A stretch of DNA of 64,000 nt from Eledone cirrhosa (Eukaryota): the NCBI GenBank assembly GCA_964016885.1, contig OZ024743.1:171678001-171742000 (forward strand). The letters are read 5' to 3'. The notes under the pieces were generated by a model. That model made no database searches and was not told the DNA's origin. It was given only the letters and a program-made list of their open reading frames with translations. The position numbers were made by a program, and so were the translations under genes. Each line of letters begins with the position of its first letter. Within the stretch, counting starts at the first letter, position 1. This document shows positions 1 to 54,863 of the stretch, piece by piece.

Positions 1-1452
1 CCAACAGCGTCGTCGGGCGCTGGACGGACGGACCGATTAAATTGCTAGGGGTCTGGTTCGGTCCGGACCTCCAGACGGACAAAAACTGGGACGAGGTGAC
101 GAGCAGGGTGGCTTCTCTCACCCAGAAATGGGCAGAGAGGAACCTATCCCTGAAAGGTCGAGCGGAGGTGGCTAACGAGTACATCGCGTCCGTCATCTAC
201 TACCGCCTGACCGTCGTACCTTGTCCTAAGCCCCGCCTGACTGCGCGGAGCGTTTGCTCTTTCGCTTTTTGTGGAAGGGACGCGCTCCGATGGTCAGGCG
301 GTCCATCCGCTGTCAACACCCGCTACGTGGAAGGCTGGGCATGCCGTGGCTGATGATGCGCAGACACGCGCTCAGGCTACGACATCTCCACCTCTTCCTC
401 GACGGTGATCAGGTGTGGTCGCCGTTTGCTAGACACGTCTTTCCCCAGCTCGTCTCCTTGACGCAGCTGCTGTCCTGGGTCAAGCGAAGACCGAGAGGGA
501 GAGCTTGGAGACTGGAATGTCTTCAGGCACTCACAGCCCTCGACCAATCGGGCAATGTGATCGGTGGAAACTCCACCTTGGCGTTCTATAGAGGATTAGT
601 GGAGGGGAAGAGCGACGACGTACTTGGAGAAACTCTAGGCGTCGACGAAAATCAACTAGCCAATCTTTTCGGAAGGACTTTCGGGCCGGGGCCTATGGAC
701 AACTTCCAGAAATCCCTGGCCTGGCAGTGCTACCGAGGAGCTTTGCCAGTTCGGGATAAACTCTACAGGCATGGAAGTGCCGTCAGACGGGCATGTCCTA
801 GATGCGCGCAGGGCGACGAAACCGTCCTGCACGCATTCGTCCAGTGTCCGAGCATTGCTGACTTGTGGGTTTATGTCGAACACCTACTGTCACGTGTAGG
901 ACGGATCCGGCTATCAGCTGAGTCCATCGTGAGGATTGCCCCGCCGCCTTCCTTTAGTCGGGAAGGGCAGGCAGTTTTTATCTGTCTGGTGGCCATGGCG
1001 AAAGAGATAGTATGGTGGACACGTTTGAAAGGGCTGAAGACGTGCACTTACCTCTTCGGTGATGCCCTAATTAACTTTTTCAAATTTCATTTGAAAAGGA
1101 AAATCAGGGTAGAGAGTGAAGTGCTCTCTTCCCAGCATTTTGTTGAAAGATGGGTGAGAGAAGCATGTATGGCCCGAGTGAATGGACCTACTCTGAGTAT
1201 GTGTCTGTAAATTGAAGGTGGAAAACTGGGAGAGGGCACTTGCCCTAGTGGTCAGGGTCACTGTGGTCTTTTAATGGGCTTTCTCCACAAATATCCCTCG
1301 GAAGTCTCCACCCTATTGGAGAATTTTTCTTTGTTATTTTATTACATCCTCTGTTTTTTTACACGCAGAAATGCCCATTTGTACCGTCCTGTATTGTCCT
1401 GTACTGTCCTTAATGTCTACTTTATGTAAACCCTTGTGGTTAATAAAGAAAA

Positions 1453-1453
<1 letters not shown>
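1..1453 (+). mobile_element. 3' part of Tx1-clade (L1-group) non-LTR retrotransposon, (ATT)n-tailed family
   Basis: ORFs 42-353 and 254-1210 give the post-RT region (LGVWFG, LSLKGRAEV, GGLGMP-like) and CCHC motif CPRC..ETVLHAFVQC, with one frameshift; 3'UTR ends in stem-loop, AATAAA, (ATT)n. Confidence 0.9.
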
Positions 1454-6600: not shown

Positions 6601-8960
6601 TCGGAAATCCTGGTCTCGCTGACGGCAATTACATCCATTTCTGGAGACCTGAGGTCATTGAGTAGGTGATTCTGCTTCTAGGGTGACCCCAAGCCACGAA
6701 CATTTAAACATCCTACGCTTAATATGGTCATTTTGGTAGACTAAAGGAGAGATGAAAGGTTTACTTACCTCCCGGGGTCTTGTGGAGGTCGGGAAGTTTG
6801 ACCTCTATGGTTGGTGGGGTTTCCATTGGGAACCTTTTTAGGAACCTACTCGGGCCTTTTAAATTTTGGGCTGCCACGTCTTCGGAAAAGCTTTCCCTAA
6901 TATGTTTATAAGTTTGTATTGGCATCAGCACAGTGTTTGGGGCACTTTGAAGGTGCCAAAAATCTCTCCCTCTTTCTCAATGTCCTTACTTCGTGTTACA
7001 AAGGCCATGAGTTGTTTGTTGGCCTTCCTTAGTAACACGAAGTTGGGTGTGTCTGTTGTTGTTAGTGTCTACGTGTGATTTCTTTTGTTTTGGATGACTT
7101 TTGCTTGTGCCGGTGTTGTTGACGGTTGTAGAGTTTGTGTTGCTGTGGGTGTGTTTTGTGTGCTTGTTGGTGTGTGTGGAGCTGGAATTTTCGTTTTCTT
7201 TTTATGCCTTCTTTTTTCCTTTTTAGGTTTTTGGGGTTTCCCCTCATCTTCACTCGGAGAAGTGAAGGAACTCGTGCCTGGGGACTCTGTGTCAGAGGGG
7301 TGTGGTGTGTGCGTTTTGCTCTGTTTGTATGTGTTTGAAAGAAGGGGGAGGATGGATTTAATTGTCCTTGTTGTTAATGGTGCAGTTTCATTTTCTGTTG
7401 CTGCTAGTGTTGTCCCTCCTCCCGACACCGGTGGTGGCAGCAACGGAGGTTTGCGGCCGCCTGCAGTTTTCAATTGGGAGCAAAAGTCTCTCATGTGTGT
7501 GGCTTGACCACACACGAAACAATGCGGATGTTTGCCCCTCATGATTACCTGGATTTTGTACCCGTCCGGTAGTTTTATGTGGTCCGGTATGTTTTTTCTG
7601 TCTTCAGGTCTGATTTGGAGAAGAATCTCTAAACCAGTCCCGAAACACCTCTCTCTCTTTTTGTAAATCTAACGTCGAGGAGGGCGTCAGGGCTCTCTAC
7701 CGCCACGCATCCCAGGAGTCACCATAAATCAAGTTCTCGCGGAATCCTGGGAACACGGTCCCTTACTGTTCTCATTCCATGTAGGAGGGGTACAAAATGA
7801 TTTGGTCCGTTTTGCAGGGGACCACAGAATGCTTTATAGCAAGGGTCTCAGTTCTGAAAAGCACCAAGCTGCTCCCAAATTGTCTGACCCTTGTTATATG
7901 GTCTATGTCGTCATTATCGATACATTTCAGTGCTGCTTCTACCTGTCCTTCGGAAGTAGTCTTAGCGTTTTGAGATTTGACCGAAATGCATCGATATTTT
8001 AGTACTGTCCTCTTCTTTGCTGCCATTACCTCTTCCAGGACATTTCAATTGGCCCAACCTTTTTCTTCTCTTGTTATAAATGTTTCAGCTTAGGCCAAAC
8101 GTTCTTTTTTCTCTGTAAGGTCGAAATCGTGTAGCGTTTGGCTTTTTGCTACTTTGGCCGCGAAAGTATCCTTTTTGTTGTTGCTGTTTTGCTGTTTTTC
8201 GTTGACTATATTGTTGTTAGCGTTGTCGTCGTTCTTGTTGTTGTTGGTGGTGGTGGTGTTGCTTTTGTTTTTGTTGTCGTTGTTCTTGTTGGTCTTGTTG
8301 CTGTTATCACTGTTACAGTTGGTTATATCTTTGGTGCCGCTGTTATTGTTCTCGTGCAGTTGGTGTAGTTGCTGTTGTTGCTCTTGCTGTTCATGTTCTT
8401 GCTAGTGGTGTTAATTTCGTTGTTGTTTTTGTTTTGCCTTTCATCCTCACGGAGTCGATAAAATAAAGTACCAGTAATGTACTGCGTTATTGCTGGCCTT
8501 GTGCCTAAAGTAGAAACAATTATTTCTTGCGTCTGACTTTTGGTTGTCGCTGTTATTGCTGAGGTTAGTGTTGTCGTTTTTTGTTTAAGGGTATTGTTCT
8601 CACTATTGGTGTTGTTGCTGCAACTGTTCATGTTGCTTGTGGCGGTGTTGCTAAATGTGTTTGTAGTGTAAATCAATGTATTTGCCGCTTGTCTCTTCTC
8701 AACATTTAGGACGCTGTCACACGACGGCAGACATAAAGTGGGGACTCAGCCATGCTTTTTTTTTTTTTCGAGAATTTTATTTTCAGGAAGTTCAAATATT
8801 TGGGCAAAAAGGCCCAAATATTATACAGTCACCCCTCCACAGGGCAAAGACGGAAGTCTTACGACCCTTTTCAAGGTATACAGGAATTATTATAAATGAA
8901 AATAAACAGAAAATTTACCACTTTGCGGATTCTAAAGAGACGTCTACACTGTCTGACAGC
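3700..8960 (-). mobile_element. Near full-length but decayed Tx1-clade LINE (family C)
   Basis: ORF1 remnants 6760-8680 with zinc knuckle CFVCGQATHMRDFC; ORF2 from ~6731 with APE endonuclease (DRFLI, DHKFV, GPGYWKLN) and RT (FKPITLLNTEFKIL); many frameshifts and stops. Confidence 0.85.
8432..8524 (+). mobile_element. 5'-truncated Nin/Deu-domain SINE inserted antisense in Tx1 ORF1
   Basis: gcctttcatcc..gtcgataaaataaagtaccag core; same family as 28506-28697. Confidence 0.8.
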
Positions 8961-8961
8961 C

Positions 8962-9026
<65 letters not shown>

Positions 9027-9043
9027 TAATAATAATAACAATA
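8962..9043. repeat. (AAT)n microsatellite
   Basis: direct reading. Confidence 0.95.
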
Positions 9044-9044
9044 A

Positions 9045-11420
9045 CTAAAACATTCTGGAGAGGAATATGGGAGCAGGATGTTAGACATAATGCCCAGGCA
9101 GGGTGGATTGAGACAGTACAGAGGGAGATCGGTGAGCAGGCACAACAACAAACTGATTTGAGTATCACAGTTGAAACTCTTAAGGGGCAGGCCAAAAAAC
9201 TAACCAACTGGAAATCACCAGGCCCAGATGGTGTGCAGGGGTATTGGATTAAACATTTAACATCCCTCCACCCGAAGCTGACGGCCATGTTCAATGACTG
9301 CTTGGTGTCGGGGGAGGTGCCAGAGTGGTTGACAAAAGGTACCACAGTTCTGATAATGAAAGACCGAATCAAGGGTAATGATGTTACCAACTATAGACCT
9401 ATCACATGTCTGTCCGTAATGTGGAAACTGTTGACGAGCATTGTGTCTGAGGAAATCTACCATCACCTCCACACAAACAACTTGTTACCGGACGAACAGA
9501 AAGGATGCCGAAAGAAGTCACGTGGTACAAAGGACCAGTTACTTATTGATAAGATGGTAATGGGGAATTGCAGGAGGAGACACACTGATCTTGCCATGGG
9601 ATGGATAGACTACAGAAAGGCATTTGACATGGTGCCTCATTCTTGGATCACCAAAAGCCTGGAGATCTTCAGGGTGGCAGATAACATCAGACAGTTGCTG
9701 GGCAGGAGTATGGGGTCCTGGGAGACAGAGTTGAAATCAACTGGAGTATCCTTGGGAAGCGTGAAGATCAAGAGAGGTATCTTCCAGGGAGATAGCCTGT
9801 CCCCTCTGTTGTTTGTCCTTGCCCTAATGCCCTTGACCATTATGCTGCGAAAAGTGAGAGCAGGATACAAGTTGGGAAGGGGAGAGCTTACCATCAATCA
9901 CCTCCTCTTCATGGACGATCTTAAGCTCTTCGGGAAAAGTGAGGAGTTGGATGTGCTTGTTGACACTGTCCGTATTTTCAGCAATGATATATGTATGCAG
10001 TTTGGTATTGGTAAATGTGGAGTCATTGTGATGAGGAGGGGTAGGTTGAGCAGAAGTAGCGGGATCCAGATACCAACAGGTAAGATGATAAAGGAAATTG
10101 ACTCTGAGGAAGGATACAAGTATCTGGGCGTTCTGGAGGCTGATGGCATAAAGAACAAAAGAATGAAGGAATTGTTAAGAACTGAATACATTCGGAGAGT
10201 AAGGAGCGTATTGAAGTCACATCTTAACAGCAGAAATGCCATAAGCGCAGTAAATTCCCGAGCTGTGTCTATTATTAGGTACAGTGCGGGAATTCTGAGA
10301 TGGAATGTTGCTGAACAAAAAGAAATGGATAGGAAGACTAGGAAGCTATTGACTATCTACAACATGTTCCACAAGAGGAGTGATGTCGATAGACTCTACC
10401 TAAGGAGATCTGAGGGTGGAAGAGGTCTTATCAGCATAGAGGACTGTGTTCAGATGGAGAAAAACAACCTATACAAATACGTGACCTATAGTAAGGAGCC
10501 AATGCTCAGAACTGTACTGAAGGAGGGGACAGTAGGCCAGGGGATGTCCAAGGAGGAAATAACATCAAGGAGGAAGAGCAGCCTTAAGGGAAAATCCCTT
10601 CATAGTACCTTCTTTGAGAAAACTGAATTTAGAGATCCACAGACATGGAACTGGTTGAGAAGAGGAGACCTCAAAAAGGCTACAGAAGGAATGATAATGG
10701 CTGCGCAGGAGCAGGCCCTCAAAACGAAGTGGTTGAAGCACCATATTTACAAGGAGGAGGCTAGCCCACTGTGCAGGATCTGTGGAGAGAGAGAGGAGAC
10801 TGTGGCTCACATTGTGTCCGAGTGTAAACACCTAGCCCAGACCCACTATAAGGGCTGGAGACACGATGTGATGGGCAGGGTGATCCACTGGCACCTGTGC
10901 AAAGTAAACAATTTACCACATTCTGAGAAATGGTATGAGCATAGGCCGGAGGCGGTGATGGAGTACAATCAGGTGAAGGTGCTGTGGGATTTTAGGATAC
11001 AGACGGACAAAAAACTGGAACACAATAGACCTGACCTGGTGGTTGTGGACAAAGAAAAAAGATCGTGTCTGATTGTGGATGTGGCCTGCCCGTTCGACAC
11101 GAGATTGCAAGAGAAGGAGAGGGAGAAAATTAACCGATACCAGGACCTAAAGTGGGAGGTGAAAAGGATTTGGAACTGCCATGAAGTCAAAGTGATCCCG
11201 ATTGTCATAGGCGCACTGGGGACTATCTCCAAAAGTTTCCAGGGATGGTTAAAGAAAATCGGCCCCTTCACGCTTTTTGGAACGCTTCAAAAGGCATGCT
11301 TGCTTGGAACAGCAAGAACCCTCCGATACGTCCTGAATATCTGAGGCTGCAGGTAGTGGCTTGATATTCAATCCAACGGACTTTCCAGTTAACCAACATC
11401 AATGACTGAGATTCAAGGAA
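9045..11420 (+). mobile_element. 5'-truncated R4/Dong-clade retrotransposon flanked by (AAT)n on both sides
   Basis: RT+RLE ORF; (AAT)n at 8962-9043 and 11420-11450, matching the known (TAA)n specificity of Dong. Confidence 0.9.
9158..11344 (+). CDS. Uninterrupted reverse transcriptase + CCHC zinc knuckle + PD-(D/E)xK restriction-like endonuclease (N-terminus missing)
   Basis: KSPGPDG, NYRPITCL, IDYRKAFD, GIFQGDSLSP, LFMDD, CRICGEREETVAHIVSEC, RPDLVV..VDVACP..EKINRY. Confidence 0.9.
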   Translation: MSITVETLKGQAKKLTNWKSPGPDGVQGYWIKHLTSLHPKLTAMFNDCLVSGEVPEWLTKGTTVLIMKDRIKGNDVTNYRPITCLSVMWKLLTSIVSEEIYHHLHTNNLLPDEQKGCRKKSRGTKDQLLIDKMVMGNCRRRHTDLAMGWIDYRKAFDMVPHSWITKSLEIFRVADNIRQLLGRSMGSWETELKSTGVSLGSVKIKRGIFQGDSLSPLLFVLALMPLTIMLRKVRAGYKLGRGELTINHLLFMDDLKLFGKSEELDVLVDTVRIFSNDICMQFGIGKCGVIVMRRGRLSRSSGIQIPTGKMIKEIDSEEGYKYLGVLEADGIKNKRMKELLRTEYIRRVRSVLKSHLNSRNAISAVNSRAVSIIRYSAGILRWNVAEQKEMDRKTRKLLTIYNMFHKRSDVDRLYLRRSEGGRGLISIEDCVQMEKNNLYKYVTYSKEPMLRTVLKEGTVGQGMSKEEITSRRKSSLKGKSLHSTFFEKTEFRDPQTWNWLRRGDLKKATEGMIMAAQEQALKTKWLKHHIYKEEASPLCRICGEREETVAHIVSECKHLAQTHYKGWRHDVMGRVIHWHLCKVNNLPHSEKWYEHRPEAVMEYNQVKVLWDFRIQTDKKLEHNRPDLVVVDKEKRSCLIVDVACPFDTRLQEKEREKINRYQDLKWEVKRIWNCHEVKVIPIVIGALGTISKSFQGWLKKIGPFTLFGTLQKACLLGTARTLRYVLNI

Positions 11421-11450
11421 TAACAACAATAATAATAATAATAATAATAA

Positions 11451-14400
11451 TGTTTTCTTTATTAACCACAAGGGTTGACATAAAGTATAACATTAAGGAC
11501 AGCACAGGACAATACAGGACGGTACAAATGGGCTTTTCTGCGTGTAAAAAAAACAGAGGATGTAATAAAATAACAAAGAAAAATTCCCCAATAGGGGGGA
11601 GACTTCCGTGGGTCACTCATGGAGAAATCCCACAAAAAAATCCACGGTTACCCTGAACGCTAGGGCAAGCGGCTTCTTCCAGGCTTCCTTCTACGATACT
11701 ACAGGCACACGCTCAGGGTAAGCCGCTTCACACGGGCCATTCTTGCCTCACCCACCTTTCAATAAACTGGCTGGGAAAGTAGCACTTCTCTCTCCACCCT
11801 GGGGAAAACTGTAAAATTAATGAGGCGGTCACCGAAGAGGAAAGTGCCTGTCTTCAACCATTTCAGACGTGTCCACCATACGACATCTTTTACCACGTAG
11901 ATAAAAACGGCCTGCCCCTCCTGGTTAACGAATGGCGGCGGGGCAATCTTCACTATGGATTCAGCTTAGAGCCGGATCCGTCCTACACGCGACAGCAGAT
12001 GTTCGACATAAACCCACAAGTCAGCAATGCTCGGACACTGGACGAGTGCGTGCAGGATGGTTTCGTCGCCCTACGCGCATCTTGGACATGCCCGGCTGAC
12101 GGCACTTCCTTGCCTGTAGAGTTTATGCCGCACTGGCAAAGCTCCTCGGTAGCAGTGCCAGGCTAGGAATTTCTGAAAGTTGTCCATAAGCCCCGGACTG
12201 AAGGTTCTCTTAAATAGATTAGCTAGTTGATTTTCATCGACGCCCAGAGTCTCTTCAAGGACGTTGTCGCTGTTTCCCTCCACTAACCCGCTATAGAACG
12301 CCAAGAGGGAGTGTCAACTGATCGCATTGCCCGATAAGTCGTGGGCTGTGAGCGCCTGAAGACATTCCAGTCTCCAAGCGCTCCCTCTCGGTCTTCGCTT
12401 GACCCAGGACTGCCGCTCCATCAAGGAGAGGAGCTGGGGAAACACAGGTCTAGCAAACGGCGACCACACCTGATCACAGTTGGGGAAGAGGTGGAGATGC
12501 CGTAGCCTGAGCGCATGTCTGAGCATCATCAGCCACGTCACGTCCAGCCCTCTGTATAGCGTGTGTTGACAGCAGATGGACCGCCGGACCATCGGAGCAC
12601 GTCCCTTCTGCAAAATGCGAAAGAGCAAACGCTATAGCGCAGTCAGGTGATGCTTAGGAAAAGGTATGGCATCAGGTGGTAGTAGATGACGGATGTGCTG
12701 TACGCATTTGCCACCTCCGCTCGACCTTTCAGAGATAGCTTCCTCTCGGCCCATTTCTGGGTGAGAGAGGCCACCCAGCTCGTCACCGCGTCCCAGTGTT
12801 TGTCCGTCTGGACGTCCGGACTGATCCAGACCCCTGGTTGGACAGCATGGACCTTCCTCTCCAGGTGCCGAGCCACAGTCCCACCGACTTTTCCTGGTTC
12901 AACATTGCTCCTGTCACCACCTCGTATTCTCTCAGAGCTGTGCCGATCACCTCGATGTGTTTGGCATTCGAAACCACTACGGTGACGTCGTCAGCATATG
13001 CTGACACGGTTGTCCCGCATCCCAGTTTATACTGGACGCCTCCCAATGTCCCCAGTTTGTGTAGTAAGGGCTGCAGAGTCAATACGTACAACAGGGACGT
13101 GAGGGGACATCCTTGGTGGACCGAGCATATGACGTTGAACGGTTCCGAAAGGCATTCCTTCACTCTAACCACAGAGCTTATGTTACAGTGTATGGCAGCG
13201 ATCCAGCCTTTGAAGACAGGCCCAAAGCCGGCCGCCCTCAGGACCACCGCCAGCTATTGATGGTCGACACTATCGACAGCTTTCGACTGATCTAAAACGA
13301 TTAAAGCTCCACCCTTGCCAGATTCCCTAGCTATCCTCTCCACGATGTATCGCATGAAATGGAGATTGTCGTGGATGGATCTGTCTGGAATCGTGCATGG
13401 CTTCGCCTCTCCCATCAGTCTAGTACCCCTGAATAGCTGAGCGAATTACCGCTGAAATGCTGCCCACATTTGCTCGGATTCAAGTAACATGCTCTCATCG
13501 TGGTCGTCCAAAGACCGGATCTTGACTTTATTGCCACGGTACGCCCCCGCCACTCGGGCTCATAGAACAGATTTCGTCCCCTCATGTCTGAGAACACGCG
13601 CTCTAATACTGGCAACGCAACCTTGGTGCTTTGCATTGAAGAGTTAGTCGAGAGCCAATCTCGCTGCAAACACAGCGGTTACCATGCCTTTACTAAGCGT
13701 CTTGTCTAATTTACTAACTAGTTCTCTCTCTGTTCTATTTTTCTATATTGTTAACACCTTACTAAACCTAATGGAATCTATTCTAATCGCCCTTTTCAGA
13801 GCGAACCGCGATTTGTTGCTGACGACTGCCTCCGTCAACACCCGCCTACTAGTTCGCTAATCCGGTATTTGTAGGGTTTGCGCACCGTGAGTGACGCGTT
13901 TAGCTTCCAGTACCCGGGTCCTTGTCTAAGAAGCCTTTCTACGTTGACCACACAGATCACAGAGCAGGTTTGCGACGCTTTTAAACTCTCTTCCCTCTCC
14001 GCTAGGCCCACACAGTCCCAGCGTGCATCCAAGATCCCGCCCTGCCTCGCCCTTCGCCCACTAACACTAAGAGCGCGAGGTTCCAAGAAAGGTCTCCAAG
14101 CGCCGGAAGAAGTCAGGCCGTCCTGCTCCTGTCGGGGTGTATTCAGCCACTAGCTTGAAAGTGCACCCTTCTCCACTGGTCACGTCCAGCACCATCAACT
14201 TACCTTTAGGGTCCAGTAACATGGTCCGTATCACGGGGTCCAGGCCTCTCCGCCCCCCCCCCTAAATTTGGGATAGCTTGGAGATGTGTACGAAAATGGG
14301 TGCGAATGTCCGGGTCTCGGTGGTGATGGCAATGGTGGTGGTGGAGGTGTGGCGGTGGTAGTGTTGATGGTGTCGGAGGTTGTAGGGAGGGTCTGTTTAT

Positions 14401-17002: not shown

Positions 17003-17089
17003 GTAAAGTTATATTTAAAATTGTTGGGTTACAACTAGTAAATATTTATAACTGATATAAAAGCACTCGACAAATATTTGGAGTATATT

Positions 17090-17559
17090 TACAATATTAA
17101 ATAAATGGAAAACTATATTTATAAAACCATATTTATTTCATTATACATATTTCGGGGATATCATATTAACAATATGCTATGCCTTCATCAGACAAAATAC
17201 AATATAAACAGTTTTATAGATAAATATATTCGACATACCGTAATAAACATCAACTTCATTTGAAGAGGTTTACTCTAGCAGTGAAAATACAGAGAGAAAG
17301 AAAGAGAGAAAGAAAAGAGGGAAAAACGAAAGAAAGAAAGACAAAACGAAGAGAAGGAAGAAAAAGAAGAAAAAGAAAAAGAAGAAATGCATGGAACAAA
17401 ATAGAGAGATGGAAAAATAGATAAAGTGAAGAGCTTCATGTAAAGAGACAGAAAGATATATATATATATAGAGAGAGAGGAAATAGAGATAGATACATAT
17501 ATATATATAGAAAATTAGGTAGTGGGAGGTCATTTTGAGTAAGTGTATCAATGATACAT

Positions 17560-17598
<39 letters not shown>

Positions 17599-19877
17599 GC
17601 TCAAGTATTAATGTAAGGGAGATATATAGAGAGATATAGAGAGATATAGAGAGAGAAAAAAAATTTTAAAATATCCAGACATATTCGAGGCGTAGAAAAC
17701 CCTATGTTTTAATGTATTAGTATTTATAAAACTTACACTACACTGTAAATATCAGTATTCCTGAATGAAACAAGTATTCACAATGTGTGAAAATTCATTA
17801 TCTTATGTTTAGTTTTAAAAATTCATATGTCTATGTGACAGTTACAAATCTCAATGTGAATCCAACTGATTCACTCCGCAAACTCTAAGTTGTCGGAAAA
17901 CATTCTCAATGTGGTATAAAAATTTGAGCGTATTATTATTCTTGCGATTACTCTACAAGATTATCTATCAAGCAGAAATAGAGAGCAGATTTCAATATAC
18001 TAATCGAAAATATATATTATATTATAAACATAATAATAAGTAAAAATATAGAATAGAAAACTAAAAAAATATTACGAAAGAATATTACATAATAAAAATA
18101 TTGCATATTAAAAATACTACGTATTAAAAAATATTACGTATTAAAGATTTACATATAAAAATTTACATATAAAAATATACATATAAAAATCTACATATAA
18201 AAATTTACATATAAAAATATATAAAGATATTAAAAAAATAAATAAAATAAAAATAAAAATATTATAGAATACTACAATACTAAAGAATAAAAGTAAAAAT
18301 AAAAATAAAAATAAAAATAAAAATAAAAATAAAAATGAAAATAAAAATAAAAATAAACCACAAAAAAACAACCCTTCAAAGTTAATTGACAATATATTGC
18401 CACGTTCACTACAAGACAAAGCCAAAAATTATCTATCAAAAATTATCTATCAAAAAAATTATCTATCAAAAAAAAAAAAAAAAAAATCTTCAACGGCACT
18501 TTCAGGGGTACTCTGGCAACTTAAGCTAGATAACGTTAGATATTCGACGGCTTGGAATATAGTCTCAAGAGGGATTCCTTTTAATTCATCCTCTGAGACA
18601 TGTGACCTCTGTGCAGAGGAGATATTCTTTATACTAAAATCTAAAAACTCCCTTAACCTACGGACAAATTTATTCAGTTGTTGCAAACATAGATTAAACT
18701 CAACGTTTAAATATAAATTTAAATTTAAAATGTAGTATATTTAGTTTGATTTATATTTATATGAGAACTAGCCGATAAATCTTTTGATTCCTAAATCTTT
18801 GATTCCCTCGTTTTACTCTTTTTATTGTTTATTTTATTTTATTTATTTTTATTTTTATTTTTATCTAAACATTCCTCATGAAAAATTAAGCTACCCTAAA
18901 AGCCGATGCTCCAAATTTTTTGAATTAACCTTACACTAGATAAACTTCTATATTAAACATAGGAACATATGTAGACATAATTGGACATCATAATCTTTTT
19001 ACGATATTCTTTGCTAGATGTGATTTGATAGATAATTTTTGGCTTTGTCTTGTAGTGAACGTGGCAATATATTGTCAATTAACTTTGAAGGGTTGTTTTT
19101 TTGTGGTTTATTTTTATTTTTATTTTCATTTTTATTTTTATTTTTATTTTTATTTTTATTTTTATTTTTATTTTTATTTTTACTTTTATTCTTTAGTATT
19201 GTAGTATTCTATAATATTTTTATTTTTATTTTATTTATTTTTTTAATATTTTTATATATTTTTATATGTAAATTTTTATATGTAGATTTTTATATGTATA
19301 TTTTTATATGTAAATTGTTATATGTAAATCTTTAATACGTAATATTTTTTAATACGTAGTATTTTTAATATGCAATATTTTTATTATGTAATATTCTTTC
19401 GTAATATTTTTTTAGTTTTCTATTCTATATTTTTACTTATTATTATGTTTATAATATAATATATATTTTCGATTAGTATATTGAAATCTGCTCTCTATTT
19501 CTGCTTGATAGATAATCTTGTAGAGTAATCGCAAGAATAATAATACGCTCAAATTTTTATACCACATTGAGAATATTTTCCGACAACTTAGAGTTTGCGG
19601 AGTGAATCAGTTGGATTCACATTGAGATTTGTAGCTGTCACATAGACATATGAATTTTTAAAACTAAACATAAGATAATGAATTTTCACACATTGTGAAT
19701 ACTTGTTTCATTCAGGAATACTGATATTTACAGTGTAGTGTAAGTTTTATAAATACTAATACATTAAAACATAGGGTTTTCTACGCCTCGAATATGTCTG
19801 GATATTTTTAAATTTTTTTTCTCTCTCTATATCTCTCTATATCTCTCTATATATCTCCCTTACATTAATACTTGAGC

Positions 19878-19908
<31 letters not shown>

Positions 19909-20372
19909 ATGTATCATTGATACACTTACTCAAAATGACCTCCCACTACCTAATTTTCTATATATATATATGTATCTATCTCTATTTCCTCTCTCTATAT
20001 ATATATATATATCTTTCTGTCTCTTTACATGAAGCTCTTCACTTTATCTATTTTTCCATCTCTCTATTTTGTTCCATGCATTTCTTCTTTTTCTTTTTCT
20101 TCTTTTTCTTCCTTCTCTTCGTTTTGTCTTTCTTTCTTTCGTTTTTCCCTCTTTTCTTTCTCTCTTTCTTTCTCTCTGTATTTTCACTGCTAGAGTAAAC
20201 CTCTTCAAATGAAGTTGATGTTTATTACGGTATGTCGAATATATTTATCTATAAAACTGTTTATATTGTATTTTGTCTGATGAAGGCATAGCATATTGTT
20301 AATATGATATCCCCGAAATATGTATAATGAAATAAATATGGTTTTATAAATATAGTTTTCCATTTATTTAAT

Positions 20373-20378
<6 letters not shown>
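17090..20378 (+). mobile_element. Fold-back Penelope-like (Naiad-type) remnant, ~1.35-kb inverted arms 17090-18440 / 19024-20378
   Basis: Mirror-image ORF pairs (17270-/19917+, 18141-/19039+); spacer holds GIY-YIG C-terminus STALS..W..CDLC..LN..CCKHR (18489-18735); degenerate hammerhead cores at 20277-20324 (+) and 17144-17191 (-); (TA)n flanks. Confidence 0.85.
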
Positions 20379-20409
<31 letters not shown>

Positions 20410-21637: not shown

Positions 21638-21706
<69 letters not shown>

Positions 21707-22572
21707 TAAAAACAATGAATATAAACAAAGAAACAATTCCTTATATTAAAAAATTCATCATTTTACGATCGTTTCTAGGATATATATGTGTGTGTTGGTA
21801 TGTATATCATATAGATCTATGTAAAAATTTTACAAACTATCAGAGGGAATATACATACCTACACATATATATGCTGTCTTCAGAAATAATGATATTTGTT
21901 TATTGAAAAACACCAGCAAAGATTCAATATAATAAGTCTGTTTGGGAACAGGTTTTGAATTGACCAATAGAAGAGTAGTAAGTGGTCAAGTTGATAGAAT
22001 AGTAGTAGTAGAAATTTAATTTAGGGGTAGAGGAATGCAGACTTCAGTTTTGAATGGAAATAATATTCTGAATGAAAAGATTACTTTGGGCATGAAAAGA
22101 GGTCAAGCCGGTGAAAGGTACACGAAAATTTGATGTTATTAAAGAATAATGCTAATGTTAAAATCGAAGGAGAATCTTATTAAAAACATAGGGAATTTAG
22201 ATCTATAAAAAGAAATTAAATCAATTTAATTGATAGGTATACTTATAGGGATAAATTTATATTAATTCATATGGATGTGATAAATAAGAGTTAGATGTTA
22301 TTAAAGAATGTTGTTAAAAACGAAGGAAAAAAAATTGGGGAGGGGGATAAATGTATTAGTGAGAAATAATAAACTTATATAGACTACAAGGAATTTAGAT
22401 TCATAACAGAAAATTAAAATAGTTTATATGTATACTGATAGGTATTAATTTTATGAAAAGATAGCTGTAAAAGGGAAATAAAATTATGAAGTTCTCAGTA
22501 GTAAAATACTAATTATAGGTTAACTAAATTTAAAAAAAATAATTATAATAATTTGTAAAATGAAAGTGTATA

Positions 22573-25052
22573 TTAATTAGGTTTATAATATTTGAAAGTT
22601 CTTCTAATTCTATGATTGCACGATATAATTAATTCTTGTCGCTTATTTAATAGGATATCCTTAGATTTCATTATTTCAAAAAGTTCCTGGGAACATAATC
22701 TACACTCATATCTGTTATTTTGAGCACACTTCAGGTCAGGTTATAATCGATATTCTTTTTTCTATAATTATTAATTATTTCAGCCAAGGATGTTGTATTA
22801 GCTAATGTGGCATTTTAAAAACTGTGTTTGTGGGTATTAAATCTTACTTTAAATTGGTTAGAAGTAGCTCCTATATATGAATAAGTTGAGTCCTTAGTGC
22901 TAATTTTACATTTATATACTATTATTAATAAGGCAATTTCCTTTTAATGGGCAATTTGCTTTGTCTATACAGTTACAACCATTCGTGAATATTATATCAG
23001 AGGAGTTAGTCAAATTAGGTGTGGAATTTACTCGACTTGTTGTATGTGAATGAGATGGTGGTTTGTTGTGGTTTATTTTAGTATTATGGTTAGTTTGATG
23101 TGTTGGTGGTATATTCATGTTTTTTGTAACACTTATATGCATTGTAGGCACTTATATTTTGTTGTATATTTTTGGTAGTGGAGTAGGAAAATTTGACCGT
23201 TGATCTATTTAAAATTTGATGGTATTTCTGGTTTGGCGGGAAGTTTTTCTCTAGGATAGTAAACATTTTTTTAGGGATATTATCTTTAATTTGTAGATTA
23301 AATGGAGCATTTTACCAAGTAACTCGTCTATTACGGTTTCGATGCTGATTTTTATTTTTATACGATGTATCCTGATGTTTACTAAGAGAGTTAGTATTAG
23401 TGAATTTATTATACATATGTTTAGTTAGATTCACTGATTTAGGTGTTTTAGTCTGATTATTAGGAATTTTGTTAGTAATGTTATTAACATATATTGGAGT
23501 ATTAGGATGAATGGTTTTTGAAAGTTATTATATTGTATGTGAGAAGAGGTAGAGAAATTAAGTTTTAAGTTGGTATTTTGGGGTATAGTGTGAGTGGCAT
23601 TTAGGTGTGTATTTTTCATTTGTTTTTTGTTGGTAATATTGGGTTGTATGTTTGTAATATTATTGGTACAAGACTAATTTGTTTTTGTGGCCGCTTCTAG
23701 CTAAAGCTTCTTTATAAAAGTTCGCATTTTTATCGAATATATCCTGGTTAGATGAAAGGTTAGAAATTCTGAGTGAGATATTATATGCAAGGTTTTTAAG
23801 GATAGATCTAGGGTGATTGGATTGTGAGTGTATGTAATGTAAGTTTTGGTTAGGTTTATGCTAAGGTTGGTAGATACCCGTAGATAAGTCTAAAGTTATA
23901 TCAAGGAAATTAACTACTTTACTGGTGTTTTCAAATGTAATAGTGAGACTATAATAGTCTTTGAGGAAAGTTCTAATAAGTTTTTTATTTTTTTCAATTT
24001 CTGATAGGCTAAGGTTAGTGGAAAGAAGAAGACAGTCATCACGATATAAACTACCACTAAGGTGGGGGAAAAAGAAGCATTTATGTTAAATAGAAGAAAG
24101 AGGCCCACAAGATCGGTAATTTGGGCAGAATCACTAGAGCCCATAGTAATGTCGAATAGATTACTATATGTATTTCTTGTCCAGTATTCCTTCTGAAATT
24201 CCAGTATTGTTTGTCTAGCGTGCGTGATAATATTAATGTCATCCATAGTTAAGTTTGATCTATTTTTGGCAAATATCAAAGCTTTGTTCAGGAGTATGGG
24301 TAATATAGAGGGATAATAAGCATCTATATCGAATTGTAGAAATGAAGCAGATGATTTATTCCTAATATTAGTAAACCAGTTAATTACCTGGGATGTGTTT
24401 TCCCAGAGTGGTAAATTAACAGGTTTTCTTAATTGTGGGATGACTCTATCTAAAATTTGTTTACTAATGATGCCAATGTCAGATTTGGAAGGGCATATAA
24501 GTCTTATAGAAGGATTAGAGTTAAAATTAGATTTGTGATCTTTCAGGTTAAAGTGTGGTTTTTTCAGTGCCAAAGGTTCAGTTCTATCTTCAATATTGAG
24601 TTTATTTACTATGTTGTGTTCTGTTGTTGATATTGGTAAGTGCCGCATTATTTGTTTTTTTATAATTTTTCCTGAGTTCTTTATAAATGAACTCATTGTA
24701 ATTATCAATATCCATGTGGTACAGATTTCCAGTTTTGTCAGAGTGGACATGGATTTTGTTAGATTCTTTTAGATCCAATAGGGTAGAATCAGGATCCTGT
24801 TGCAAATTAGATTTATATTTCTTAAATTTGAGGTGTTTGATTAAGTTAAAAAGGTCTTTCTCGAAGTTTTCAAGCAAGGAGTTGTATGGAGGGTTCTTAT
24901 ATGTAGTGAAATCATATAAATATTTCTTATCAGTAAATTTTGTTTTTTTATCAAAATGGTAGGCCCTCCATCTGACCCTTTTGATGAATTGGTTGGTTTT
25001 TTGTATCATAAGATGTAAGAATTCATCCTTAGAAGGTATTGGTGCAATATAA
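22573..25052 (-). pseudogene. Frameshifted Naiad RT + GIY-YIG endonuclease ORF
   Basis: PIPS..FIKRVRWRAY, SDKTGN, RLICPSKSDIG, FDIDAYYPSI, FDITMGSSDSAQ, CNCIDKANCPLKGNC, C-terminal CNHR. Confidence 0.9.
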
Positions 25053-25826
25053 ATATCGTGCAATCATAGAATTAGAAGAACTTTCAAATATTGTAAACCT
25101 AATTAATATACACTTTTATTTTACAAATTATTATGATTATTATTTTTTAATTTAGTTAACCTATAATTAGTATTTTACTACTGAGAACTTCATAATTTTA
25201 TTTCCCTTTTACAGCTATCTTTTCCTAAAATTAATACCTATCAGTATACATATAAACTATTTTAATTTCCTGTTATGAATCTAAATTCATTGTAGTCTAT
25301 ATAAGTTTGTTATTTCTCACTAATACATTTATCCCCCCCCCCCCCATTTTCTTTCCTTCGTTTTTAACAACATTCTTTAATAATAACTAACTCTTATTTA
25401 TCACATCTATATGAATTAATATAAATTTATCCCTATAAGTATACCTATCAATTAAATTGATTTAATTTCTTTTTATAGATCTAAATTCCTTATGTTTTTA
25501 ATAAGATTGGTATTTCTCACTAACACATTTATCCTAAAATTTTATTCTCCATCTATTTTAACATTAGTATTATTCTTTAATAAGATCAAATTTTCGTGTA
25601 TCTTTCACCGGCTTGACCTCTTTTCATCCCCAAAGTAATCTTCTCATTCAGAATATTATTTCCATTCAAAACTGAAGTCTGCATTCCTCTACCCCTAAAT
25701 TAAATTTCTACTACTACTATTCTATCAACTTGACCACTTACTACTCTTCTATTGGTCAATTCAAAACCTGTTCCCAAACAGACTTATTATATTGAATCTT
25801 TGTTGGTGTTTTTCAATAAACAAATA

Positions 25827-25964
25827 TCATTATTTCTGAAGACAGCATATATATGTGTAGGTATGTATATTCCCTCTGATAGTTTGTAAAATTTTTACAT
25901 AGATCTATATGATATACATACCAACACACACATATATATCCTAGAAACGATCGTAAAATGATGA
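25827..25964 (+). ncRNA. Hammerhead motif with long stem II (mirror copy at 21755-21892 minus)
   Basis: tcattattt-CTGAAGA-~100 nt-GAAA-cgatcg-TA-aaatgatga. Confidence 0.7.
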
Positions 25965-26089
25965 ATTTTTTAATATAAGGAACTGTTTCTTTATTTTTAG
26001 TCATTGTTTTTATTAATTTATCTTGACTCTGTTTTCCTGTGATTTTCATCGAAAACATTTTTGAATACATCTTTTCTTTTCATGATATT

Positions 26090-27288: not shown

Positions 27289-27414
27289 TTACGGTTTGAG
27301 TTCAAATCCCGTCGAGGTTAACTTTGCCTTTCATCCTTACGGGGTCGATAAAATAAAGTACCAGTATTGCACTGGGTAATTGTTGGCCTTGTGCCAAAGG
27401 TAGAAACAATTATT
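27289..27414 (+). mobile_element. 5'-truncated Nin-domain SINE with a 3' extension to ~27446
   Basis: B box gagttcaaatcc, Nin core, 3' hairpin, attatt end. Confidence 0.8.
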
Positions 27415-27481
27415 TCTGTTGTCTGACTTTTGGTTGTCGCTTTATTATATATAACAATCTCGTGTACAAATCAGGCTGTGG

Positions 27482-28505: not shown

Positions 28506-28697
28506 AATAATTGTTTCTACTTTTGGCACGAGGCCAGCAATTACCCAGTGCATTACTGGTACTTTATTTTATCGACCCCGTAAGGATGAAAAGCAAAGTT
28601 AATCTCGACGGGATTTGAACTCAGACCGTAAAGGGACGTAACTATGCTGGAAAGCATGGCGTCCGACCCTCTACTGATACTGTCAATTCACCGCCCT
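28506..28697 (-). mobile_element. Full-length tRNA-headed Nin-domain SINE (~190 bp)
   Basis: Starts agggcggtga.., A-box-like tgacagtatcag, B box gagttcaaatcc (28611-28622), Nin core, hairpin, attatt; inserted at taataat, absent from the second pLTR unit. Confidence 0.85.
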
Positions 28698-29458: not shown

Positions 29459-29584
29459 GTATGTATTTCTTTTAGGTTTGGTGGTTAATGATATCACTGG
29501 ATTCATACTGAACCCGGACATTGAAATGTTCAAAGTATAATAAACCTTTAAGGAATTACACCAGTCCAGCCTCCTGTTATTTTA

Positions 29585-29621
<37 letters not shown>

Positions 29622-29637
29622 AAAATAAACGAACATG

Positions 29638-29670
<33 letters not shown>

Positions 29671-31255
29671 GTCGCAAATCGAGGAAGTCGGCACCTTACT
29701 AAAGGAATACGAAAGTCTCACAGGAGCGAAGCTGAACCGGGACAAGTCCATCGGTTTGCAACTCGGATCGTGGAGAGGCAGACCGATGCCTTCCGATGGC
29801 GTCGTCGGACGCTGGACGGAAGGACCGGTAAAGCTGCTCGGGGTCTGGTTTGGTCCGGACCTCCAGGTGGAGAAGAACTGGAACGAAGTGACGGCCAAGG
29901 TGTTTGCACTCACCCAGAAGTGGGCCGAGTGCAAACTATCCTTGAAAGGTCGAGCGGAGGTGGCGAACACTTTTATAGCGTCCGCCATCTACTACCGCTT
30001 GACCGTCGTGCCTTGTCCAGCCAAAACGCTCGCCAAAATGGAGCGCGCCCTCTTCCGATTCCTTTGGAAGAGGCGGGCTCCTTTGGTAAGAAGATCCATC
30101 TGCTGCCAACACCCTTCTAACGGAGGGCTGGGGATGCCGTGGTTGACGATGCGCAAACACGCGCTCAGGCTGCGGCATCTCTACGTATTCCTCACCGGAC
30201 AACCGGTGTGGGCCCCGTTCGTGAGGCGAGCCTTCCCACGACTCGTCTCACTGACCGAGCTGCAGTCCTGGGTCAAGCAGAGACCGAGGAAAATGGGCGA
30301 CTGGCACATCGAATGTGCTCAGGCGCTCACAGCCCTCTGGCAGGCGGACCCGGCGATCAGTGGAGACTCCACTTCGTCATTCTATAGAGGGTTGGTCCGC
30401 AGCAAGTGCGACGACGCGCTCGGTGAAACTCTAGGCGTGGAGGAAAATGAACTGGCCAGTCTGTTCGGTAGGACCTTCCGCCCGGGACCGATGGACAACT
30501 TCCAAAAGTCCCTGGCCTGGCAGTGCTACCGAGGAGCTCTACCAGTTCGAGACAAGCTCTACAGACATGGGCGCCCGGGCAGGGACCCTGCAAAAAAGAT
30601 CTGTCCGAGGTGCGTGCGAGACGAAGAAACCGTCGCGCACGCATTCATACACTGCCCGGGCGTCACTGACCTGTGGGGATATGTAGAACGACTATTGTCG
30701 CGGGTGGGACCAATCCAGTTGACCACCGAGTCCATTGTCATGATCAAACCGCCACCCTCCTTCAAAAACGAAGGAGAGGCGGTTTTCCTTTGTGTGATAG
30801 CTATGGCGAAAGAGGTTGTATGGTGGACAAGGTTGAAAGGGCTGAGGTCAGACACCTTTCTCTCCGGCCAACAACTGATTCTTTTTTTCAAATACCACTT
30901 TGGAAGAAGAATCAGGATGGAGAGAGAGGTGCTGTACCCCAGCAAGTTTTATGAAAGGTGGGTGAAAGTGGCGAGAATGGCCCGAGTGAATGGGCCTTCT
31001 CTCTATATCAGCCTGTAGATTGAGGAAAAGGAGGAGGAGAGGAAAGGAGTACAAGCTCTTCGTACTCCTGGAGATGAGGGTTGCACATTTTTTTCGGGGG
31101 TATGTGTTACCCATATAAACTGTCTCCCTCTATTGGGGAAAATCGACTAACTTTTAAATTCCATCTGTGATAACATTTTACACGTTTTTATTGTATGTAA
31201 ACTTCCCCCTTTGTATTTGTCCCCTTCTTTTGTGCCCCTGTGGCTAATAAAGAAA
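29671..31255 (+). mobile_element. 5'-truncated Tx1 family B copy in (TATC)n
   Basis: Open ORF2 C-terminal half to 31018; nearly identical to 41550-43124; (TATC)n at 29638-29670 and 31258-31318. Confidence 0.92.
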
Positions 31256-31257
31256 TA

Positions 31258-37358: not shown

Positions 37359-39430
37359 ATGAACGCTGCGTCCAACGATAATGGTGGTGGAGAGGCGCTA
37401 AGACTACAAAGCTCGCAGTCAACAACGTCTTCTTCACTAGATACTATAGAGATGGAAAGACAAAATGAAAATAAATAAACGAATTCATATTCAAACAACA
37501 CAAATGACACCAAACAATTCAATGACAACAAAAATAACAGCAAAACCAATAATTGTTTCTACTTTAGGCACAAGGCCAGCAATTACCCAGTGTATTACTG
37601 GTACTTTATTTTATCGACCCTGTAAGGATGAAAGGCAAAGTCAACCTCGGCGGGATTTGAACTCAGATCGTAAAGGGACGTAACTATGCTGGAAAAAAAC
37701 CAATAATGATGATAAAAGCAACAATGATAACAACAACAAAGAAAAAAATAAAGACAACGCCAATAACACCAGCATCAAAGACAACAACAACACCAAGGAA
37801 AATACGGATGATACCAACATCGGTGACAACAAGAATAACAACAACAATAACAACAATAATGACAACACCACCAATACGGATTCCACAAAGAAACCAAAAA
37901 TCTCCTTTGCAGAGAAAGTTCAAAAGAAAGAACAATTGATATATCTCGACATAACAAATGCTGAACACCTTTTAAAGGACGCTAAGAGATATGTCACCTT
38001 CGAAAAAAATGGTGCTTTCAGCATCAATTCTCCGGTAGAAATTCGCAAGGAAACTGCTCTCAAAACGATAGTTTTTAGGACAGTTTCCAATTCTACCCGA
38101 AAACCAGCCCAATTATCACAGAAAGAAATTGACCTGATTTTCAAAAATTCAATGAATGATATTTCATTCATTCAAAGAAGCAAACTCTTTGGGAGTATTT
38201 CGGTACTCATGAAGAATCAATTGACGGCCCAAAATTACTCTGTGTCGCCAATTGTATCCAACCTGTACACCTTTTTCCCTACATACATGGGAAAAAGGAC
38301 ACAAAAGATCAGAATCACAAGTGTCACACCAAAGGTGAACATATGGTGGATACTGTGCGGCTTCATCAATTTTGATGAAGACAGAATACTGTCAGTAGGA
38401 AAGTCCCCCAGAGATGTATTCAATTGGGACTAGCATTGAAGTTCTGGTGCAAATGAGCCCAGAGCGAATAGCTATGATCCCACAGCGTGTACTCCTGGAC
38501 GGACTCACCTACATAAACCTTTCGGTTGAGGGTAGGCGGCCTTCATGTTACCATTGCTTTAGCAGGGGTCATCTGAGGGCTTCCTGTCCTAAACTAATGA
38601 ACCAAAAAAAGGCTCTTCTGCCGACACCCATCAAAACAACACAACCACCAACACCACCACAACAACAACAACACCAACACACAAAAATAACCACAACAAA
38701 CACAGTCCCACCCAACCCCACTCCACCTAAAACCACTGCAAAATCACATAGAGACACAACAGCTCCCCAAGACATACCCCTCCCCAATCACACAGACGAT
38801 ACAACAGATGAGGCTATCTCGCCATCACCCAGTGAAGACGAGGGAGAACCCCATCGCTCGAAAAGAAAGAAAAGACATCACAAAAGCAAAAAACCAGCAA
38901 ACACTACCACAAACATACAACCACCAACACAAACAACAAAAATATCACAAACAAAACCCCCACATTATGAAAACAAAATACCTACAACAAAACGAAAGCA
39001 CACACAAGAACTACAGACAAAAACAAACACAACACAAGAAAATTACACTTACACTTACATAAACACTGAAAACAAAACACTAATGGAGACCATCACGAAC
39101 GACCCTTCGGTTTTCACCGAAGGGAAAACTTTCGCCCACTCTATTAAAAATAGCAAAAAACTGAACCTAAAACTGATTAGGGTCCCTATACAAACTTATA
39201 GGTCCCTAAAAGAAACATTTGAGAAGGATGTGGGGAATTCCTGCGTGAAACCACTCAACCGCGTCCTTCTCAAATGCCTCCCCACCCCAGACACCCCCAC
39301 CCCACCAGACCCCACCCCACCAAACATCTGCATCCCCACCCCGCCGGAAACCACCACCCATCCAGACAATCCCTCCAACACCCCCATGGAAATCGTGCGG
39401 CCTGGTCCCCAGGAGGCGAAGGGTGAGTGA
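37359..39430 (+). pseudogene. Tx1 family B ORF1, disrupted by a SINE and a frameshift
   Basis: MNAASNDNGGG start similar to family A; PTYMGKRTQ, VEGRRPSCYHCFSRGHLRASC. Confidence 0.85.
37548..37692 (-). mobile_element. Nin-domain SINE, antisense in ORF1, with 12-bp TSD
   Basis: AAAACCAATAAT at 37542-37553 and 37696-37707. Confidence 0.85.
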
Positions 39431-46042: not shown

Positions 46043-47343
46043 ATCTATCTATATATAAATGCAAGTTTACGATTCTGTGTGTCTGCCTAAAACTAGCAAA
46101 CTACCAGACCAAACTCTTCAAAATTACATATACATATTCACTATACACTCGGACAGGTAACGGGCGAAAAAGATTTACTTTGCCAAGCAAGGAATTCATT
46201 TAAATTCAATTTATCTTATTTTCTAATGAATATCAAAAGAGATCATCCATTTTGTTTTTTTATGTTCTCCAGTCTATAGATATGAGAGTGAGGGTGGGAA
46301 GAGAGAGAGTAAAGGATGAGAGAGAAAGAGAGAGTGTGGCAGATGGGAGAGAGAGTAAGGCGATGAGAGAGAAAGAGAGAGAGTGAGTGGATGGGAGAGA
46401 GAGAGAGTAAGGGGATGTGAGAGAGAAAGAAAGAAAGGGATGAGAGAGAAAGTGGGGGATGGGAAAGAGAGAGAGAGAGAGTAAGGGGATGTGAGAGAGA
46501 AAGAAAGAGAGTAAGTGGATGAGAGAGAAAGACAATGAAAAGAGAGAGTGGGAAAGTAACCAGCGTTCTTAACTTTTATATTTATTACTTTTACACACTT
46601 TTTAACTCTCCCGCTTCCTTAACGTTATTTATCTTTTCTTTATTTTTTGTTCTCTATCCCGTAGAGTAAGGGGGATGTGAGAGAGAAAAAGAGAGAGAGT
46701 GAGTAATGGGATGGGAGAGAGAGAGGGAAAGTAACAAGCGTTCATTAACTTTTATTTATTTATTATTTTTACACACTTCTTAACTCTCCCAATGTTATTT
46801 ATCTTATATTTATTTTTGTTTGCTATTGTGTAAGGATGAGAGAGAGAAAGAAAGAGAGGAGATGAGAAAGGGAAAGGGAGTGAGGCGGATGGGGAGAAAA
46901 AGACAATAAGAAAAGAGAAAAGATGGGAGAGAGAAAAAAAGTAAAGAAGCAGGAGAGAGGGAGGGTGATTGGAGCGATTCTTTAACTAACGTGTGTCCGC
47001 GTTTATATATATATTTACACACACATATGTGTGTGTTATGGGGGGGCGTTCTTTAGCAGACGATATTTGTTACCATCAAAGCTTATTTTCTACATATGTC
47101 AACATATGTAGAGTTTGTCGTTTTTTTTTTAGACAATCTGAAATCCCAATATTTTCTACATATATCTACCTATGTAGAGTTTGTTGTTTTTTGGGATACA
47201 ATCTGAAAACTCAATATTTTCTACATATGTCTAAAATTAATTACACCTAATATACATTCATATAAAGAGATCATTTAAAACAACTTTACTGAGTGAACAA
47301 TACATTCTATAGTTGTTTCTATTTCGGAAAGAGTGTGGTGTGT

Positions 47344-47412
47344 AATAATTGTTTCTACTTTTGGCACATGGCCAGCAATTAATCCAGTGCATTACTGGTA
47401 CTTTATTTTATC
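47344..47412 (-). mobile_element. Short 3' fragment of the Nin-domain SINE with 17-bp TSD
   Basis: GTGTGGTGTGTAATAAT at 47333-47349 and 47413-47429. Confidence 0.85.
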
Positions 47413-47439
47413 GTGTGGTGTGTAATAATATCACTTCAA

Positions 47440-54825: not shown

Positions 54826-54863
54826 GCGGCCCGTAAAACCATAATCACCTTTGAGGACCAACT

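Follow-up and report, generated by a model that had tools for sequence, protein, structure and literature searches.

Organization of the locus

The window, i.e. the whole analysed stretch of 64 kb from the Eledone cirrhosa assembly (contig OZ024743.1), contains five copies of one SINE family, four of which are 5'-truncated, dispersed among LINEs. Coordinates refer to the window, and published work is cited for those parts of each source that were available. Features relevant for the analysis are the following.

1..1453, plus strand: 3' part of an ATT-targeting Tx1-type LINE, with zf-RVT in the frame 230-1210, a hairpin at 1429-1441 and an ATT run from 1454
8433..8518, plus strand: SINE copy, 5'-truncated, with a 3-pair stem; no duplication found
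8957..11421, plus strand: LINE of putative R4/Dong type, as labelled by its motifs; a Tx1 copy has inserted into its (TAA)n tail, and the repeat polarity is opposite to that of the SINE and Tx1
11452..13960, minus strand: second ATT-targeting Tx1-type copy, with a hairpin at 11464-11476, antisense in the repeat tail of the R4-type LINE; far boundary approximate
27289..27408, plus strand: focal SINE copy, 5'-truncated, beginning at position 65 of the 185-base full copy and thus without the A-box part of the head
27383..27397, plus strand: terminal hairpin of the focal SINE, with a five-base loop and 5 pairs (3-4 in the family)
27409..27414, plus strand: two ATT units after the focal SINE, family-wide the beginning of the target-site duplication
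28512..28696, minus strand: full-length SINE copy with a tRNA-like head, A- and B-box-like motifs seen by eye, a loop variant and a 9-bp duplication
29552..31256, plus strand: sister Tx1-type copy on a four-base repeat, with a like hairpin (stem 31234-31244)
37554..37695, minus strand: SINE copy, 5'-truncated, with a 12-bp duplication (37542-37553 and 37696-37707), inside a Tx1 copy
47350..47413, minus strand: SINE copy, 5'-truncated, with a 17-bp duplication (47333-47349 and 47414-47430) and a loop variant

Other repeats are present in the window. Long inverted repeats, with arms of up to 812 bases that are 93-100% complementary, occupy 17084-20384 and 21698-26021; the second brackets putative Penelope-like frames at 23914-25063. 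A 510-residue frame at 54855-56387 has no Pfam match and is presumably Penelope-like too, and broken frames at 48553-51257 read like a Helitron Rep-helicase. Between 29552 and 46056, two Tx1-type subfamilies ending on the four-base repeat form a head-to-tail array with ~5.9 kb spacing and nested truncations.

Composition and abundance of the SINE family

The family is short, interspersed and multi-copy, it has no ORF, and its copies are flanked by target-site duplications, as is characteristic of SINEs. By its tRNA-like head, the 185-base full copy is putatively tRNA-derived; the box-like motifs were recognized by eye, and ARAGORN and Rfam searches with this copy (28512..28696) called no tRNA and returned nothing meaningful. 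The first-pass annotation had described the element as a Nin-domain SINE. In a comparison made by eye, its body did not show the blocks that are conserved among four gastropod Nin sequences from the literature, leaving that name unsupported, and the element was on this ground not placed in the Nin-DC/Deu superfamily. In automated annotations, octopus SINEs are mainly tRNA-Core and tRNA-Deu (PMC8967140), and no domain name is accordingly given to the body here. Short-word searches of supplementary files of PMC4824008 and PMC5804259 did not retrieve the sequence.

In a sample of 1 Mb, composed of 100 evenly spaced 10-kb stretches, 154 SINE body anchors were detected. This density, ~150 copies per Mb, extrapolates to roughly 4-5 hundred thousand copies in the 3.0-Gb genome. 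A recognizable tail was found in 133 of the sampled copies, of which 114 belong to a short form and 19 to a longer one.

Several copies are arranged in particular ways. About 30 bases of 3' flank are common to the focal copy (27409-27441) and the copy at 8433 (8519-8551). Their source is a repeated element, which is an independent, recurrent SINE insertion site in loci L272-L277 (the copies there are truncated differently, and L272 and L273 show, by eye, duplications of 11 and 18 bp). The focal copy holds just a short piece of this flank, which could reflect 3' transduction or later deletion. In L277 and L280, two SINE 3' ends adjoin each other as an inverted pair that includes some of the flank and resembles a fold-back product. 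Locus L187 (1496-9500) is built of six tandem ~1.58-kb units, each comprising a SINE end followed by an apparent tRNA gene start, and in L196, L150, L179 and L186 SINE copies are stacked head to tail with one target duplication common between them.

Terminal hairpin of the SINE

The focal copy ends in a hairpin with arms at 27383-27387 and 27393-27397 and the loop at 27388-27392; the first ATT is at 27409, 16 bases past the loop. Hairpin, loop and spacing are thus placed as in the first-pass annotation (27383-27414), and the loop variants it noted in two other copies were located at 28506-28555 and 47344-47393. The copies at 8495-8524 and 37548-37577 had been cited as carrying the same structure, which applies to them with a stem of three pairs instead of five.

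Among the 133 sampled tails, the loop is unchanged in 115, and the three inner pairs of the stem are formed in 117, 122 and 130 copies, although conservation is partly built into these numbers because tails were accepted with up to two differences from the motif. The fourth pair is formed in 75 of the 133, with a T-T mismatch in 49, and the fifth in only six. The five-pair stem, assumed before to characterize the family, is therefore nearly private to the focal copy, while the family has 3-4 pairs. No compensatory change was detected within the SINE family in these 133 copies, and none in contigs of four sequencing runs of other organisms, where the same tail is present (three of the runs have only 4-83 contigs). 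In minimum-energy folds of the last 50 bases, the hairpin appears in one of the five SINE copies of the window, which is not the focal one, compared to four of four Tx1 ends; folding z-scores of the SINE ends in the window range from -1.38 to +0.35.

Target sites and duplications of the SINE

Duplications of 9-21 bp border 55 of 110 short-form copies, while swapped-flank controls show duplications of at least 9 bp in 5 of 110. In 47 of the 55, the duplication begins at offset 0 from the SINE end. The ATT hexamer is for this reason mostly target DNA, the start of the target duplication, and not mainly a tail of the SINE as had been proposed. Past the SINE end, five to six nearly fixed ATT-type bases are followed by unrelated sequence, and 97 of the 110 copies have no more than two ATT units. 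A pyrimidine mostly precedes the target, with C at 25 and T at 19 of the 55 sites. Duplications of 12 and 17 bp, already reported, were confirmed for the copies at 37554-37695 and 47350-47413, respectively; the focal copy shows one of 6 bp only.

Tx1-type LINEs

The window LINEs were provisionally assigned to the Tx1 clade by their architecture and target preference; no named reference was returned by the homology search. Pfam matches to their frames are Exo_endo_phos, RVT_1 (in a partial frame and below the cut-off) and zf-RVT, and two homologues of ~1150 residues carry the same three families. Naturally intact ORF2 candidates in the genome have open frames of 1073-1150 residues. This combination of APE-type endonuclease, reverse transcriptase and C-terminal zinc motif is the architecture of L1-group LINEs. 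One published criterion for the clade is that over 20% of the flanks show the preferred target (PMC4494074). Here, 20 long loci yielded 15 full-length starts, all of them preceded by (ATT)n, three lying within SINE tails and five within other Tx1 tails.

These LINEs comprise several subfamilies, distinguished by the terminal stem. The one to which the ATT-targeting copies of the window belong, with A/U pairs in the outer stem, is abundant (1852 candidates), and several of its copies lie antisense within R4-type tails. Subfamilies with a G/C stem and ATT tails are true ORF2-bearing elements, and further subfamilies have this hairpin and terminate on a four-base repeat. Both window ends said to share the loop and the 16-base spacing with the SINE do so, at 1429-1453 and, on the minus strand, at 11452-11476. 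The first 600 bases of one A/U-stem Tx1 were inspected and contain no such hairpin. Searching viral contigs with the Tx1 protein gave no confirmed match, and metagenome pattern scans gave 0 and 0 matches.

The ATT run at Tx1 ends has a median of 7 units (43 ends). Duplications of 13-30 bases, starting within 2 bases of the end, were recognized at 15 of 70 ends; most of the 70 junctions are without one, about 19 of them because the reference had a break, so that they are not true junctions. Five of the 15 duplications (L057, L139, L247, L263, and L270) include letters other than ATT, and these are the informative junctions.

The hairpin shared by the SINE and Tx1

Of 1644 starts of ATT-ATT runs in the 1-Mb sample, 85 are preceded, 15-18 bases upstream, by the loop closed with at least three pairs. 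SINE ends account for 77 of these sites and Tx1 ends for seven, the last one being also a Tx1 end as judged by eye; the spacing is exactly 16 in 78 of the 85. In the sampled 1 Mb, the combination of hairpin and ATT is thus confined to SINE and Tx1 ends.

Sequence similarity was evaluated by end-anchored alignment of the focal tail with 19 LINE ends. Four G/C-stem Tx1 ends score 8-9 (shuffle p 0.001-0.002), followed by the A/U-stem Tx1 and two related CR1 ends with 4, the latter being the best ends outside Tx1, while all others outside Tx1 score at most 2. The same four ends lead for two other SINE copies of the window, one CR1 end being tied with the lowest of them for one copy. A Tx1 end on the four-base repeat scores as high as the ATT-targeting ones. 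When a SINE-tail profile, seeded on the loop and so biased to it, was run over the 1 Mb, Tx1 ends took 9 of the 14 top rows behind a single truncated SINE. The SINE and Tx1 have the same loop and the same closing C-G pair, and the sister subfamilies match further, so the earlier view that structure rather than sequence is common to the two was too strong. Neither is the Tx1 on which that view was based, with its A/U outer stem, the closest partner: among the four ATT-targeting Tx1 ends it is the weakest match (4 against 8-9), no better than CR1. As to the periods of activity, median identity to one real copy within the 1 Mb is 93% for the short-form SINE (126 hits), 90% for the A/U-stem Tx1 (10) and 82-86% for G/C-stem Tx1 (5-7), as a crude measure that includes cross-hits between subfamilies.

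Starting from the ORF2 C-terminus, 151 Tx1 hits were collected, 126 of which have the end and 123 the loop. The closing pair is C-G in 122 of the 123 and the third pair is G-C in 62 and A-U in 58, in a set that includes duplicates and is weighted by the searches made. Between Tx1 subfamilies, the two arms of the stem therefore change in concert around a constant loop. RNAalifold on an ungapped set of nine Tx1 and three SINE ends predicts just the 3-pair hairpin, with both-sided changes compensating two of the three pairs. The SINE differs from the G/C-stem subfamilies in one pair, the middle one, which is flipped. Paired cells amount to 91% on 11 ends, a level reached in none of 500 shuffles, with the structure taken from the same related sequences. 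The hairpin is common to the sampled Tx1 lineages, including those on the four-base repeat, and thereby indicates the clade as a whole instead of any single family.

The pairing could also be explained if Tx1 ORF2 copied the SINE without reading the hairpin, the AUU run and the ATT target being sufficient and the hairpin a leftover of a captured Tx1 tail. Consistent with this are the weak folding of the SINE hairpin, predicted in one of five copies, and the lack of compensation within the SINE family; likewise, the crocodilian SINEU was assigned to Tx1-Mar by target alone, no LINE sharing the SINEU-1 3' end according to the part of PMC4494074 available. We nevertheless consider it unlikely, as Tx1 subfamilies that have diverged elsewhere in their untranslated regions and tails retain the loop, the closing pair and the spacing, and the flipped pair of the SINE preserves the stem.

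Other LINE families

The labels RTE-, Nimb/I- and CR1-type used here are provisional and based on motifs. Two R4-type families use a three-base repeat, in polarity opposite to that of the SINE and Tx1. A third one, with six copies among the loci sampled, has ~50 bases inside its end a 21-base stretch that matches the SINE from the loop to the end, as counted by eye. It agrees with the long-form SINE variant in 18 and with the focal copy in 16 of the 21 positions, compared to 13-15 for Tx1 over the same stretch. The stretch is not terminal but forms the loop of another, longer hairpin, and all five copies with a visible end (of five) finish on a different four-base repeat. R4-type copies that end on the four-base repeat and have the SINE-like hairpin loop are in loci L131, L134 and L148 (all three on the minus strand), L174, and L185; one truncated copy, in L134, lies within the repeat tail of a different R4-type family.

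The SINE tail might accordingly have been derived from, or be recognized by, this third R4-type family, the more so as Dong-R4 outnumbers all other recently active LINE groups in Octopus vulgaris (PMC13282606, Table 1). It is still an improbable carrier because the match is internal, lies in the loop of another hairpin and belongs to a family ending on a different repeat, and the opposite polarity of the two other R4-type families also stands against it. Common origin of the 21-base segment is possible without R4 as the carrier. A longer literal tail in another LINE clade had been named by the first-pass annotation as an observation that would speak against Tx1; the internal R4-type match provides it in part, while no tail closer than that of Tx1 occurs at a LINE 3' terminus among the 19 ends scored, a panel outside which this R4-type family lies.

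A closer literal tail might belong to a LINE family beyond our sample, such as L2, Hero, R2 or another L1-group family. The analysis covered ~1.9 Mb of the 3.0-Gb genome and 19 LINE ends, family searches considered the best 150 candidates, and Hero and R2 are listed as active in O. vulgaris (PMC13282606). No such end was, however, present in 1 Mb of evenly spaced sequence and Tx1 already explains the insertion signature, so we regard this as quite improbable.

A young CR1-type family ends in (ATT)n as well, and the ATT tail alone is for that reason not diagnostic. Many of its copies have 945-residue open frames, its ATT tails have a median of 4 units (56 ends), and a terminal hairpin is present, though with another loop; its end scores -5 against the focal SINE tail. 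Another CR1 family reaches 4-5 but ends on another repeat. Duplications of at least 8 bp were found at one of 35 CR1 junctions, within a TA run, and some of these junctions may be alignment breaks. Although Nin-domain SINEs of a sea anemone pair with CR1 and L2 (PMC3747384, Table 1), mobilization of the SINE by the young CR1-type family appears very unlikely in view of these differences in loop, score and duplications.

Copies of the young CR1-type family with 945-residue frames, and of a sister with 957-residue frames, are in loci L081-L110, L211-L240, L321, L322, and L332; the 3' end of the sister is duplicated, with two hairpin-plus-ATT units. RTE-, Nimb/I-type and other CR1 families were rejected as partners, differing in their ends and terminal repeats.

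Proposed mode of mobilization

The SINE and Tx1 share 3'-terminal sequence and structure as well as the insertion signature, the latter based on only 5 informative Tx1 junctions and with ATT runs of different length. Target use thus differs in degree, which could be due to longer RNA tails or to an array preference in cis. A Tx1 carrier is the best supported because the two have in common a terminal hairpin with compensatory changes and its spacing, they use ATT targets in one and the same strand polarity, and in both a long duplication starts at the ATT. We conclude that the SINE is probably copied in trans by the ORF2 protein of ATT-targeting Tx1-type LINEs. That this involves stringent recognition of the hairpin, with a predicted grip of ORF2 on the loop, appears reasonably likely, at a lower level of confidence. 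The first-pass annotation, which held that its Tx1 lineage is stringent and mobilizes the SINE, was therefore probably right about the clade, but it named the subfamily that matches least, and stringency is something we infer from covariation only.

According to this model, a Pol III transcript of the SINE would present the hairpin to Tx1 ORF2, and the Tx1 endonuclease would nick the strand reading AAT, just after the pyrimidine (the C or T noted above). The short AUU run following the hairpin could then pair with the nicked end and prime reverse transcription, and a second nick 9-21 bases away would give rise to the duplication. The SINE tail may descend from the 3' end of a G/C-stem Tx1, and the carriers would more likely be G/C-stem ATT subfamilies than the A/U-stem one present in the window.

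In a broader interpretation, towards which the balance tips only a little, Tx1 of cephalopods may be an animal L1-group lineage that keeps stringent 3'-end recognition by means of a minimal hairpin with a fixed five-base loop. Recognition would be separate from target choice, as sister lineages retain the hairpin and switch the repeat, and it would be used by a SINE of several hundred thousand copies which, with one pair flipped, escapes long ATT arrays for bare two-unit sites. A likely carrier is hereby named for one of the most abundant repeats of the genome. The case also bears on the question, raised in PMC3472496 and PMC3747384, of whether recognition of a specific 3' structure is ancestral to the L1 group and was lost in mammalian L1. 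If true, it would offer an animal Tx1 example with a natural series of compensatory stems, so that a hairpin of some twelve bases would suffice to test the idea. A SINE-LINE partnership is in itself a mechanism of known kind, which limits the surprise.

Comparison with known systems

No description of this SINE-Tx1 pair was found in the freely available papers searched. Reports on octopus repeats list L1-Tx1, CR1, RTE, and Dong-R4, and name no SINE partner in the parts available (PMC13282606, PMC9115989, PMC12988792, PMC8967140).

The closest functional parallel in recognition is provided by L2 pairs, the eel UnaL2 with its SINE and zebrafish ZfL2-1 and ZfL2-2 (PMC4176376). As here, a 3' stem-loop common to SINE and LINE precedes a short terminal repeat, the loop is held and the stem is exchangeable, and recognition that is loop-specific and tolerant to the stem has been shown for the zebrafish elements. 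The pair described here differs in its L1-group LINE, which is target-specific and produces long duplications, and in the upper stem of 3-4 pairs; in addition, recognition is predicted in our case from sequence.

Compensatory changes in a 3' hairpin of L1-group elements, read as stringent recognition, are known in maize (ZmSINE2/3 with LINE1-1_ZM) and in Chlamydomonas (SINEX-3_CR with L1-1_CR; PMC3472496, PMC3747384). Those are pairs of plants and a green alga, with poly(A) and ~50-80 shared bases, while the present one is found in an animal, uses ATT targets and shares ~30 bases.

Among Tx1 elements, SINEU and Tx1-Mar of crocodilians (PMC4494074) are similar in that the SINE was assigned to the Tx1 machinery by target preference. 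SINEU carries snRNA heads, its tails are poly(A), and the SINEU-1 3' end is not shared with a LINE, in contrast to the tRNA-like head and shared tail in Eledone. Kibi, Koshi and crocodilian microsatellite Tx1 families also insert into simple repeats, with sister lineages on different ones; the Eledone elements target (ATT)n and a four-base repeat, and the sections of PMC4494074 available mention no tail-sharing SINE for those families.

Domain SINEs of molluscs with CR1, CR1-Zenon, L2 or Nimb tails (PMC4824008, PMC4758252, PMC11481361) have the same general composition of a tRNA head, a body and a LINE-derived tail. In the available text of these sources no Tx1 partner is named, and the term Tx1 has 0 occurrences in that of PMC4824008 and PMC11481361. 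The tail homologies they report, 35-61 bases at 72-95%, are longer than the one shared by the SINE and Tx1 in Eledone.
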